Source: an uncultured Actinomycetes bacterium
GTDB lineage: Bacteria > Actinomycetota > Coriobacteriia > Coriobacteriales > Atopobiaceae
DNA: 64,000 nucleotides
Reading direction: 5' to 3'
Assembly (NCBI GenBank): GCA_900314685.1
Contig: OMWE01000005.1
Span: forward strand, 25,315-89,314
This document shows, one piece after another, positions 58,285 through 61,647 of this stretch. Within the stretch, counting starts at the first letter, position 1; each line of letters begins with the position of its first letter. The notes below the pieces were generated by a model that did not search any database, had not been told where the DNA came from, and was given only the letters and a program-made list of their open reading frames with translations. The position numbers and the translations under genes are program-made.

Positions 58285-59187
58285 ATGGCAGACATTGCAA
58301 AGCTTTCAATCAATGGAACCGCTTACGACCTGAAGGACAATTCAGCACGCAACACAGCAAATGCGGCTGTGTCAGAAGCGAACTACAACAGGCAGCAGAG
58401 CGGAAACGTTTATGCCGGACGTTCGATTGCTGCAACCTTCCAAGGAGAGATTGGAAGCACGGGCATCTATAAGTGGCTGCAAAGCCGCGTGAGAAACGCG
58501 AACTTTGAGGGGTTGCGCATCGGCGACTACATCGACGTGCCTATTACCGAGGGCGCGAACGTGCCCGCGCAGACGGTGCGCTATATGATCGGCGCAATCG
58601 ACCAGTATTATCAGTGCGGAGACCAAGCAACGGGGCATCACGTTATCATGGTTCCGCGTGCGCCCGTGTCCGTTAAGGGCGACAAGGCTTCCAACGGAAG
58701 CTATCTGCAATGGCGCGAGACGAACGACAACAATGGAACCGCCGACGAAAAGCACCCATACTTGGTTTCAAAGCTGCACGATTGGGAGATTAACGACTTC
58801 TTGCAAGCGCTTCCCGCCGACCTGCAAGCCGTGCTGATGACCCGACGGGCGCTTCTGGAAGAGCGCTATTCTTCAACGACAAAGCTTAGCGAATCTGGCA
58901 GTTGGTCTTGGGCTGAGCTTGGCAAGGTTTGGTCACCTTCTGAGATGGAGGTATACGGCTGCGTCATATGGGGCACGAAGGGCTATTCCGTCGGCTTTGA
59001 CTCACAGTTCCCCATCTTCAGCGACACGGCACACCGAATCATGGGAACGCGCATCACTTGGTGGCTCCGTTCCGTCTCCGGCGTTTCGTCCGTCAACGCG
59101 TGCTTTGTCAACAACAGCGGCGCTGCCAGCTACAGCGTGCCGTCGGGCGACTGGATACGCCCGCGCCCGTGCTTCCTGATAGGCTAA
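58285..59187 (+). CDS. DGR target protein (DUF6273/CLec-like putative receptor-binding protein)
   Basis: SPSEMEVYG, QFPIF, WWLRS...RPCF C-terminus; contains VR. Confidence 0.88.
   Translation: MADIAKLSINGTAYDLKDNSARNTANAAVSEANYNRQQSGNVYAGRSIAATFQGEIGSTGIYKWLQSRVRNANFEGLRIGDYIDVPITEGANVPAQTVRYMIGAIDQYYQCGDQATGHHVIMVPRAPVSVKGDKASNGSYLQWRETNDNNGTADEKHPYLVSKLHDWEINDFLQALPADLQAVLMTRRALLEERYSSTTKLSESGSWSWAELGKVWSPSEMEVYGCVIWGTKGYSVGFDSQFPIFSDTAHRIMGTRITWWLRSVSGVSSVNACFVNNSGAASYSVPSGDWIRPRPCFLIG
59048..59177 (+). repeat. DGR variable repeat (VR) including GC element and IMH
   Basis: Aligns to 59686-59815 at offset 638 with 11 mismatches, all opposite TR adenines. Confidence 0.97.
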
Positions 59188-59209: not shown

Positions 59210-59232
59210 AGCGCCCGCCTTGTGCGGGCGCT
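59210..59232 (+). other. DGR post-VR hairpin/cruciform
   Basis: AGCGCCCGC-cttgt-GCGGGCGCT, 9-bp stem about 22 bp after the target stop. Confidence 0.8.
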
Positions 59233-59252: not shown

Positions 59253-59660
59253 TTGAGTACCGTATTAGCGCGTTATCGCAGCATCAGCAACTATGAGTAC
59301 TTCAACACGGCGCTACGGATTCGCAGGGACGTGACGGCGCTTGTAACGTCGTCGGCAATGCCGAAATCGTACCGCTTCATTCTCGCGGTTCCCATGGCAC
59401 AGGCGGCGCGTGAGATCGTGGGCGACATTGTGACGGCTAGCGCGTTCTACCCAAACGACGAGTACAACGTATCGCAGCGAAGGCACTATCTGACGCTTGC
59501 CGTTGCCGCTTGCGAGCTGCTTTTGCAGGACGTGCAATGCCTTGCAGACCTTGGCGTTGTGAAGGTCAGCAGGTGCGAGCGCTTGGCGGATGACATTGAG
59601 AAGGAAGTGAAGCTAATAAAGGGCGCTCGAAAGGGTGTGAAGCTGATTGGTTCGAGGTAA
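59253..59660 (+). CDS. avd: Accessory variability determinant (Avd-like four-helix bundle)
   Basis: 135 aa helical protein between VR and TR; PKSYRFIL and RRHYL...A motifs. Confidence 0.85.
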   Translation: MSTVLARYRSISNYEYFNTALRIRRDVTALVTSSAMPKSYRFILAVPMAQAAREIVGDIVTASAFYPNDEYNVSQRRHYLTLAVAACELLLQDVQCLADLGVVKVSRCERLADDIEKEVKLIKGARKGVKLIGSR

Positions 59661-59685
59661 AATATTCATGCGTTGCGTCTTGTTT

Positions 59686-59815
59686 CGCGCATCAATTGGT
59701 GGCTCCGTTCCGTCTCCGGCGTTTCGTCCGTCAACGCGTGCTATGTCAACAACAACGGCAATGCCAACAACAACGTGCCGTCGAACGACTGGATACGCCC
59801 GCGCCCGTGATTCCT
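59686..59815 (+). repeat. DGR template repeat (TR)
   Basis: 26 adenines, 10 AAY codons in VR frame; intergenic between avd and RT. Confidence 0.97.
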
Positions 59816-60020
59816 TTGCATTGCCAGTCATTGCGGATACGTCCGCAATCCGAGCGCACAAGGAAGGAAGACGCAACGTTCGGCGCTTGCGCCGTAAATA
59901 TGCGCCCCGTGGGCACCGCAGACCGCTTCTTGCATGGCGCAGGTTCCGGCGTTCGCCTACGTTTCATTGCTGGTGCCTAAGCGGCTATGGAATGCCGACT
60001 AGAAGCCGTGCGGGGTGCCT

Positions 60021-61130
60021 ATGAAATCAGAAGAACGGCGGGCGGCTAGACGCGCCCGCCGCGATGCGACGAGAGCTGCAAACCGGGCGAAGCGTCTTGA
60101 ATCATGCACTATGGATCAGGTCATGGACGTTGACCGGCTTTATAAGTGCGCCCACGCTTGCAGCAGCGGCGTTGGCTGGAAGTCAGCCGTTCAACGATAC
60201 ATGGCGCGGTGCGTTACCAACGTTCGCAGGGCACGGTCTGACGTGCTTTCAGGAAAGGACATTAGGCGCGGTTTCGTTGAGTTCGACATATGCGAGCGCG
60301 GGAAGCTGCGCCATATCACGTCGGTTCACTTTTCCGAGCGCGTAATACACAAGGCATTGGCTAGGTATGCGCTTGCACCCGCCATATGGTCTACGCTGAC
60401 AGCCGGTTGTTCCGCGAACATCAAGGGACGTGGCACGGAATACGCGCTAAAGCGGCTCAAACAGCAGCTTGCAAAGCACTATCAGAAGCACGGCAAAGAA
60501 GGTTACGTGCTTCTGGTGGACTTCTCGAACTACTTTGGGAACATCGACCATGACGCGTGCAAGCGCCTTGTCGATAGGTGCCTTGACGATCCGCGCGTGA
60601 AAGAACTTGTCTACGCTCAAATTGATTCCCACGGCTCACGTGGTCTTGGGCTTGGCAGCGAACCGAACCAAGTTTTGGCAGTAGCGTTGCCAAGCCCTAT
60701 TGATCACATGCTATTGCGCACGCCTTGCGTTCTGGCAAGCGGGCGTTACATGGATGACCTTTATTGCATCGCGCTTCACAAGTCAGACCTTCACGCCGTC
60801 ATGGCTGACATTCGGCGAGAGTGCGCAAAGCTTGGAATCATCGTCAACGAGAAGAAAACCCGCATAGTCAAGCTATCGCGCGGCTTTACCTATCTGAAGA
60901 AGAGGTTTGAATATGGCGAAACTGGCAAAGTCATTGTTCGCCCTTGCCGCGCCGCCGTGACACGCGAGCGGCGAAAGCTGAAGAAGCTTGCCGTCTTTGT
61001 CGAGCGTGGGGAGATGACGCGAAAACAGGCCATGCAGAGCTATCAATCTTGGCGCGGTTTGATGCTGAAACTAGACGCGCACAGGACGGTTAAGAGCATG
61101 GACGCGTTGTTTTCGCAACTTTTCGGCTGA
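60021..61130 (+). CDS. DGR reverse transcriptase
   Basis: ERGKLRHI, FSERVIHK, VDFSNYFGNIDH, LGLGSEPNQ, RYMDD, GFTYL; adjacent to TR. Confidence 0.96.
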   Translation: MKSEERRAARRARRDATRAANRAKRLESCTMDQVMDVDRLYKCAHACSSGVGWKSAVQRYMARCVTNVRRARSDVLSGKDIRRGFVEFDICERGKLRHITSVHFSERVIHKALARYALAPAIWSTLTAGCSANIKGRGTEYALKRLKQQLAKHYQKHGKEGYVLLVDFSNYFGNIDHDACKRLVDRCLDDPRVKELVYAQIDSHGSRGLGLGSEPNQVLAVALPSPIDHMLLRTPCVLASGRYMDDLYCIALHKSDLHAVMADIRRECAKLGIIVNEKKTRIVKLSRGFTYLKKRFEYGETGKVIVRPCRAAVTRERRKLKKLAVFVERGEMTRKQAMQSYQSWRGLMLKLDAHRTVKSMDALFSQLFG

Positions 61131-61200: not shown

Positions 61201-61647
61201 ATGTCATTTACAGAAGAGGAAGAGGCGGCATTGCGCGGCATCCTCGCAATCTACCGGACGAAAGCGCCCGCGCTTTCCGATGACTTGGCAGAGATCGCGC
61301 CAGCCATCTATCCGGCTTGGACGGGAGATGCGCATGCATACGCACAGGGAGAGCGCGTTTACTACGCAGGGACGCTTTACGTCTGCCTTCAGGCGCACAC
61401 TTCACAGGCTGATTGGTCACCTACGGCGGCGGTGAGCCTTTGGGCTAAGACGCTTGCCGCCGGAAACGCAGACACGCCGGCGGGCGATGTTCCCGAATGG
61501 GTTCAGCCCGATTCAACGAACCCTTACGCGCAAGGCGCACGCGTAAGACACGGCGGGAAGGTCTGGGAGTCAATCGTTGCTAACAACGTTTGGGAACCGG
61601 GCGCGACCGGAACAGAAGCGCTTTGGCGCGAAGTTACAGAAGGCTAG
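61201..61647 (+). CDS. Protein with two CBM5/12 (ChtBD3-like) carbohydrate-binding modules
   Basis: AW..YAQGERVYY.G.LY.C.QAHTS..W.P and PEW..YAQGARVRHGGKVWES..NVWEPG. Confidence 0.8.
   Translation: MSFTEEEEAALRGILAIYRTKAPALSDDLAEIAPAIYPAWTGDAHAYAQGERVYYAGTLYVCLQAHTSQADWSPTAAVSLWAKTLAAGNADTPAGDVPEWVQPDSTNPYAQGARVRHGGKVWESIVANNVWEPGATGTEALWREVTEG

Follow-up and report, generated by a model that had tools for sequence, protein, structure and literature searches.

The region between avd and the reverse transcriptase (RT) gene of a prophage DGR very probably yields the non-coding RNA core of an active element, which by analogy would fold on the BPP-1 model. The element lies in a 64-kb window (the whole stretch of DNA that was analysed, 64,000 nucleotides long). 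Its RNA is organised around an 11-bp long-range helix that encloses the whole template repeat (TR) and is conserved with compensatory changes, in line with the initial annotation's suggestion that the transcript could loop out the TR.

The architecture itself has already been published. New here are a further member, the recognition of the Rfam motif RT-2 as a DGR spacer, covariation in the Stop duplex and a possible promoter, and the understanding of how DGRs work is unchanged by the finding. The BPP-1 cPRT Stop architecture appears to hold in a distant lineage of gut-actinobacterial and phage DGRs, on the evidence of covariation and not of single-sequence folding.

A complete DGR in a prophage

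The DGR is complete and lies in a prophage, in the order target gene with VR, avd, TR, spacer and RT (Table 1). The TR-RT spacer is 199 nt long, and the target gene adjoins a BppU-like tail gene. All 11 differences between TR and VR fall at TR adenines, spanning A59695 to A59810, and adenine-only differences of this kind are a signature of DGR activity. The assignment of the avd product comes solely from PHROG, as searches for Pfam and PDB sequence matches to it returned none.

The sole PDB sequence relative of the RT is the reverse transcriptase of entries 8ub7-8ube (E 1.1e-11), which we take to be the BPP-1 bRT structures. In the alignment of the two enzymes, the LGSEPNQ motif of the window's RT stands opposite IGSLTSQ. 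Given that this only PDB relative is matched at such an E-value, the label "distant DGR lineage" given to the element in the initial annotation is a fair one. Close relatives of the RT occur in Adlercreutzia and Eggerthellaceae genomes and on gut viral contigs. A DGR near-identical to the Adlercreutzia and Eggerthellaceae ones was also seen on a contig labelled Oscillibacter sp. (locus L012), which may reflect a binning error or a phage common to several phyla.

A GC-rich 9-bp hairpin, AGCGCCCGC-CTTGT-GCGGGCGCT, lies at 59210-59232, about 33 nt past the end of the VR and 23 nt past the target-gene stop. It could be a target-recognition hairpin or cruciform of the kind described for the BPP-1 VR, or a weak terminator.

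Table 1. Features of the DGR and of its predicted RNA in the 64-kb window
Feature	Position	Strand	Evidence and remarks
DGR target gene	58285-59187	+	300 aa; Pfam DUF6273, E 6.5e-9
VR	~59048-59177	+	3′ end of target gene; 130-nt repeat with TR, 92% identity
avd (accessory variability determinant)	59253-59660	+	135 aa; PHROG phrog_3206 "Avd protein of DGR", E 1.3e-8
TAAAAT, -10-like hexamer (hypothetical DGR RNA promoter)	59658-59663	+	7 nt upstream of helix
Long-range helix, 5′ strand, CGTTGCGTCTT	59671-59681	+	Exact complement of 59868-59878; covariation; RNAalifold
Template repeat (TR)	59686-59815	+	Repeat with VR
Template strand UUCCUU	59811-59816	+	Complementary to AAGGAA 59860-59865; RNAalifold
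Rfam RF03077 (RT-2 RNA) match	59829-60038	+	87.2 bits, E 6e-20; covers TR-RT spacer and RT start
Stem-loop 1, 8-bp stem with UACG (UNCG-class) loop	59830-59849	+	Folds; position of the Avd-binding stem-loop
Primer strand AAGGAA (59860-59865) and GG linker (59866-59867)	59860-59867	+	Predicted priming adenosine A59865
Long-range helix, 3′ strand, AAGACGCAACG	59868-59878	+	Exact complement of 59671-59681; covariation; RNAalifold
Stem-loop 2, 5-bp stem with 4-nt loop	59881-59894	+	Candidate equivalent of the cPRT Stop stem-loop; in Rfam RT-2 consensus
Unpaired UAAA after stem-loop 2	59895-59898	+	A59897 and A59898, candidate A-minor adenosines
DGR reverse transcriptase	60015-61130	+	371 aa; Pfam RVT_1; PHROG phrog_1423, E 4e-62

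A long-range helix encloses the template repeat

Direct reading and an inverted-repeat search both confirmed that the two helix strands are exact reverse complements, as initially noted. The homology of TR to VR starts 5 nt past the end of the 5′ strand. When 59640-60020 was folded, the MFE and the centroid structure each included the long-range helix and the two spacer hairpins of the initial annotation, which are themselves present as it gave them: ATTGCGGA-TACG-TCCGCAAT (in RNA, ATTGCGGA-UACG-UCCGCAAU) for stem-loop 1 and CGGCG-CUUG-CGCCG for stem-loop 2.

A perfect 11-bp helix between the 45 nt upstream of the TR and the 199-nt spacer was obtained in 0.14% of 5000 shuffles, and the folding stability of the whole region 59640-60020 was not above that of shuffles (z = +1.0). 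Because the window holds 15 perfect inverted repeats of at least 11 nt with a loop of at most 250 nt, the single sequence is only suggestive, and the decisive evidence is comparative.

Covariation of the helix among related DGRs

Loci for comparison were collected from RT homologues, from RT-2 matches (present in 45 of the 401 same-class genomes) and from 111 viral-contig stretches with a conserved spacer motif. The region from the end of avd through the TR and spacer was aligned with MAFFT, blind to pairing, for 49 non-identical family members (alignment A2). The two halves of the helix are paired in 93.9% and 99.0% of cells, counts that overstate the number of independent events because a single genus-level group supplies the majority of the 49 sequences. 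Both-side (compensatory) changes occur at 9 of the 11 pairs, as in the arms CGTTGCATCTT/AAGATGCAACG, GGTCGCGCCTT/AAGGCGCGACC and GGTTGCAGCTT/AAGCTGCAACC, while the pair G59672:C59877 is invariant (49/49). The covariation check on homologous DGRs that the initial annotation had proposed thus came out in favour of the helix.

Wobble pairs also identify the strand. Relatives have G-U and U-G pairs at six positions of the helix; these fit RNA of the + strand only, which argues against a role at the DNA level or in an antisense transcript. When all four helices (30 pairs) were taken together, no observed measure was equalled in any of 500 shuffles, and the pairing of 82% fell to 41-52% when the partner was slid by 1-3 columns. 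Run unguided on A2, RNAalifold recovered the helix, a template:primer duplex between TR and spacer, stem-loop 2 and the 3′ domain of RT-2.

An extension to 16 bp (59683-59686 with 59863-59866), present in the MFE fold and in the inverted-repeat search, was rejected: it contains an invariant G-G mismatch, it is not conserved (59686 and 59863 pair in just 7 of 49 sequences) and it would compete with the template:primer duplex. An extra G59670-U59879 pair is available in only 30 of the 49. Within the helix, 10 of the 49 relatives (L022, L028, L030, L031, L033, L038, L039, L122 and others) have GGTCCCGCCTT in the 5′ arm and an unchanged 3′ arm, which leaves an uncompensated C-C mismatch at helix position 5 (59675/59874, A2 columns 59/275). 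Perfect pairing is therefore not obligatory.

The same arrangement extends to more divergent phage DGRs. A wider set comprised 47 spacer types, at most 80% identical, from phage contigs. Arm pairing was scored by contiguous helix, as RNA.duplexfold on long arms allows large internal loops and was non-discriminating. Cognate 5′ and 3′ arms out-paired non-cognate arms (Mann-Whitney p = 2.6e-10). By eye, about 33 of the 47 types have, at the same position, complementary arms of unrelated sequence with a hairpin and an A-run after them.

Conserved elements around the helix

The putative template:primer duplex is separated from the helix by the GG linker. GGAAGG (59862-59867), which spans part of the primer strand and the linker next to the helix, is invariant in 49/49 sequences, as are U59811, U59812 and C59814 on the template side (n=49). 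In the wider phage set the two strands change together, with UUUUGCG:CGCAAAA, UUCCAUAA:UUAUGGAA and CUCUGCA:UGCAGAG as examples. The TR base A59810 is C in the VR and is the 3′-most TR adenine to differ there. By homology to BPP-1, A59865 is the predicted primer and A59810 the predicted first templated base.

Both hairpins flagged at the outset as stable tetraloops are conserved as structures, but their loop classes are not. Stem-loop 2, which starts 2 nt past the helix, is paired in 98% of cells, with compensatory changes at 2 of its 5 pairs (n=49). Its loop is always 4 nt long and takes 20 different sequences in the 49 relatives, CUUG appearing in 2. Stem-loop 1 begins 15 nt after the TR, at the 5′ end of the spacer, and shows both-side changes at 6 of its 8 pairs among relatives with the same form; the loop in the closest relatives is UACG, UGCG or CACG. 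Judged from these loop sequences, the tetraloop classes are not under selection. Downstream of stem-loop 2, A59897 and A59898 are invariant (49/49).

The plain UNCG-capped form of stem-loop 1 is limited to near relatives of the window. Most RT-2-type and related phage spacers (A2 columns ~215-250; loci L014-L062 and many viral loci) have a longer, differently built stem-loop 1, with conserved GAGUAG/CGAAAG (AGUA/GAA-like) internal-loop sequences that are reminiscent of the loop E/sarcin-ricin motif.

The spacer belongs to the Rfam family RT-2

A cmscan search matched the full-length RT-2 model (RF03077, positions 1-222) well above its gathering score of 40. The RT-2 consensus includes both hairpins and a multi-stem 3′ domain, and stem-loop 1 of the window is built without 11 of the model positions. 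In the same consensus neither the primer strand nor the helix's 3′ arm is paired. This follows from the extent of the model, which is confined to the spacer and does not reach upstream of the TR; the Rfam model thus misses both the upstream pairing partner and the template:primer pairing.

When the RT motifs were described, only RT-10 was assigned to a DGR, that of BPP-1, and a DGR role for the others was merely speculated (Weinberg et al., 2017; PMC5737381). We identify RT-2 as a DGR spacer RNA, which is a new point and gives an orphan Rfam motif a function.

Correspondence with the BPP-1 RNA

The cryo-EM structure of the BPP-1 RT-Avd-RNA complex provides a detailed reference for these elements (Handa et al., bioRxiv 10.1101/2023.10.23.563531). 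In the BPP-1 RNA, a tetraloop-capped Avd-binding stem-loop comes just after the TR, and a TR:Sp template:primer duplex ends at the priming adenosine Sp A56, which is followed by two linker nucleotides. Sp 59-70 then forms an 11-bp duplex with the last avd codons, after which come a short stem-loop of the UNCG type and unpaired A80/A81 in A-minor contact with G:C pairs of the duplex (Handa et al., 10.1101/2023.10.23.563531). The avd:Sp duplex, the UNCG stem-loop and A80/A81 together form the cPRT Stop, which is needed for initiation and sits just past the cDNA end; cis-primed synthesis depends on the duplex, which is in contact with the RT, and the cDNA terminates 4-8 nt before the duplex (Handa et al., 10.1101/2023.10.23.563531).

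The window's RNA has its elements in the same order. Directly after the TR stands a stem capped by a UNCG-class tetraloop, and an 11-bp duplex joins the sequence just upstream of the TR to the spacer. The predicted priming adenosine is followed by a 2-nt linker, in a geometry that matches Sp53-56, A56, G57 and C58. A short tetraloop hairpin comes right after the duplex and is itself followed by unpaired adenosines. The 5′ limit of the TR lies a few nucleotides from the duplex in BPP-1, and here the VR/TR homology ends 5 nt away. The work of Handa et al. is reported to have appeared later in Nature, in 2025.

These likenesses occur between sequences that are unrelated and RTs that are only distantly related (E 1e-11). 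The two RNAs also differ in several details. The 5′ strand of the helix lies just past the avd stop codon here, whereas in BPP-1 it lies inside avd. Stem-loop 2 has 5 bp in place of 2 and a loop that is not UNCG, the Avd-binding-like stem has 8 bp against 11, and the first templated base is a predicted adenine where BPP-1 has G117.

The structural model of a DGR RNA core put forward in the initial annotation was therefore right in its helix and both hairpins but was not new, since its elements are those already published as the Avd-binding stem-loop and cPRT Stop of BPP-1, and the spacer was already an Rfam family. Handa et al. moreover predicted the layout in 207 of 278 Avd-containing DGRs, from single-sequence MXfold2 folds of concatenates of 40 nt and 100 nt (10.1101/2023.10.23.563531); the helix described here is, in contrast, backed by covariation on full-length alignments. 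This support matters because compensatory mutations in the BPP-1 avd:Sp duplex did not restore cDNA synthesis (Handa et al., 10.1101/2023.10.23.563531). That failure indicates that pairing alone is insufficient there and that a simple "clamp" picture is incomplete.

A looser parallel is offered by the msr-msd RNA of retrons. Retrons prime in cis from the 2′-OH of an internal guanosine beside a duplex of template-flanking inverted repeats, and the RNA considered here would share cis-priming from the 2′-OH of an internal purine beside an inverted-repeat duplex that flanks the template. Retrons are not known to have an Avd or a TR/VR pair, or to mutagenise adenines, whereas the window encodes an Avd homologue and a bRT-like RT, and its TR and VR differ at TR adenines only.

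A model for cis-primed synthesis

By homology to BPP-1, the element would work as follows. In the + strand transcript, 59671-59681 would pair with spacer positions 59868-59878 and the TR would loop out between them. Within this loop, UUCCUU at the 3′ end of the TR (59811-59816) would pair with the spacer's AAGGAA (59860-59865), so placing A59865 across from the first template base A59810 as a cis-primer that, like its BPP-1 counterpart, acts through its 2′-OH. The two invariant guanosines 59866-59867 would form the link between this duplex and the long-range helix. Together with the hairpin at 59881-59894 and A59897-A59898, with presumed A-minor contacts, the helix would be the counterpart of the cPRT Stop, licensing initiation and blocking RT-Avd at the 5′ edge of the TR and hence confining mutagenic cDNA to the TR. 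Protein contacts may likewise be shared: the UACG-capped stem at 59830-59849 stands at the place of Avd binding in BPP-1, and the multi-stem 3′ part of the RT-2 motif at that of the RT-binding element.

For this element the model predicts A59865 as the primer, A59810 as the first template base and a stop at about 59682-59686. These predictions would be useful for reconstituting gut-bacterial DGRs as targeted-mutagenesis tools.

A possible promoter at the Stop duplex

The sequence just upstream of the helix is also conserved. A TAnAAT hexamer is at least 90% conserved in A2 (n=49), and it keeps the same spacing from the helix in relatives whose avd stop codon falls 5-9 nt upstream of the hexamer, within it or 9 nt downstream. 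With a spacing so independent of where avd ends, the hexamer may be a -10 box from which the DGR RNA is started at the helix. A strict sigma-70 scan found no promoter, and with 11/33 in the wider phage set the box is not a general feature there. If the hexamer is such a box, transcription in the Coriobacteriia-phage lineage would start at, or within 1-2 bases of, the 5′ strand of the Stop duplex.

Two further ideas can be raised, which we regard as possible but somewhat doubtful. One is that the DGR RNA is a dedicated transcript whose own 5′ end is the Stop. The other, separate from it, concerns the BPP-1 compensatory mutants: in natural covariation 9 of the 11 duplex positions tolerate swaps and G59672:C59877 does not, and a swap-intolerant pair of this kind could explain why those mutants failed.

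Alternative roles for the helix

It is improbable, in our judgement, that the helix, as a conserved structure of the DGR RNA, chiefly serves a purpose other than the stopping or licensing of reverse transcription. Such a structure might mark the ends of a processed TR RNA or shield them, and a helix that starts about 7 nt past a conserved -10-like box could indeed protect a 5′ end. It might also control the translation or stability of the RT message, and the RT start codon does fall inside the RT-2 motif; the helix, however, is more than 130 nt away from that codon. Against either variant, the invariant primer-linker motif directly adjoins the helix, and the RNA matches element for element the BPP-1 RNP, in which cis-primed synthesis needs the duplex and the RT is in contact with it (Handa et al., 10.1101/2023.10.23.563531).

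It is very unlikely, in our view, that the inverted repeat acts in DNA or through the other strand, say by forming a cruciform or by serving as a recombination signal that flanks the TR. DGR targets are reported to use a DNA hairpin or cruciform beside the VR (work of Guo et al. from 2011), and the GC-rich hairpin at 59210-59232 follows the VR here. The wobble pairs at six helix positions in relatives would nevertheless become C-A mismatches on the other strand or in DNA, and the 176-nt spacing is unsuited to cruciform extrusion.

Least credible of all is a functionless chance repeat in GC-rich DNA, which the 15 comparable inverted repeats in the window and the unexceptional folding energy of the region would allow. 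It is contradicted by the compensatory changes at 9 of 11 pairs in relatives, by the unguided RNAalifold prediction and by arms that differ completely in sequence among dozens of unrelated phage DGRs yet stay complementary at the same site; the local probability in shuffles is low as well (0.14%).

Features at the start and downstream of the RT gene

A GC-rich inverted repeat, CGGCGGGCG...CGCCCGCCG, occupies 60036-60061, just within the RT coding start, and resembles the GC-rich segment at the 3′ end of the TR. Directly 3′ of the RT gene, a 148-aa ORF (61201-61647) encodes two CBM_5_12 carbohydrate-binding modules (E 3.5e-15), and holin-like and lysis genes come after it.
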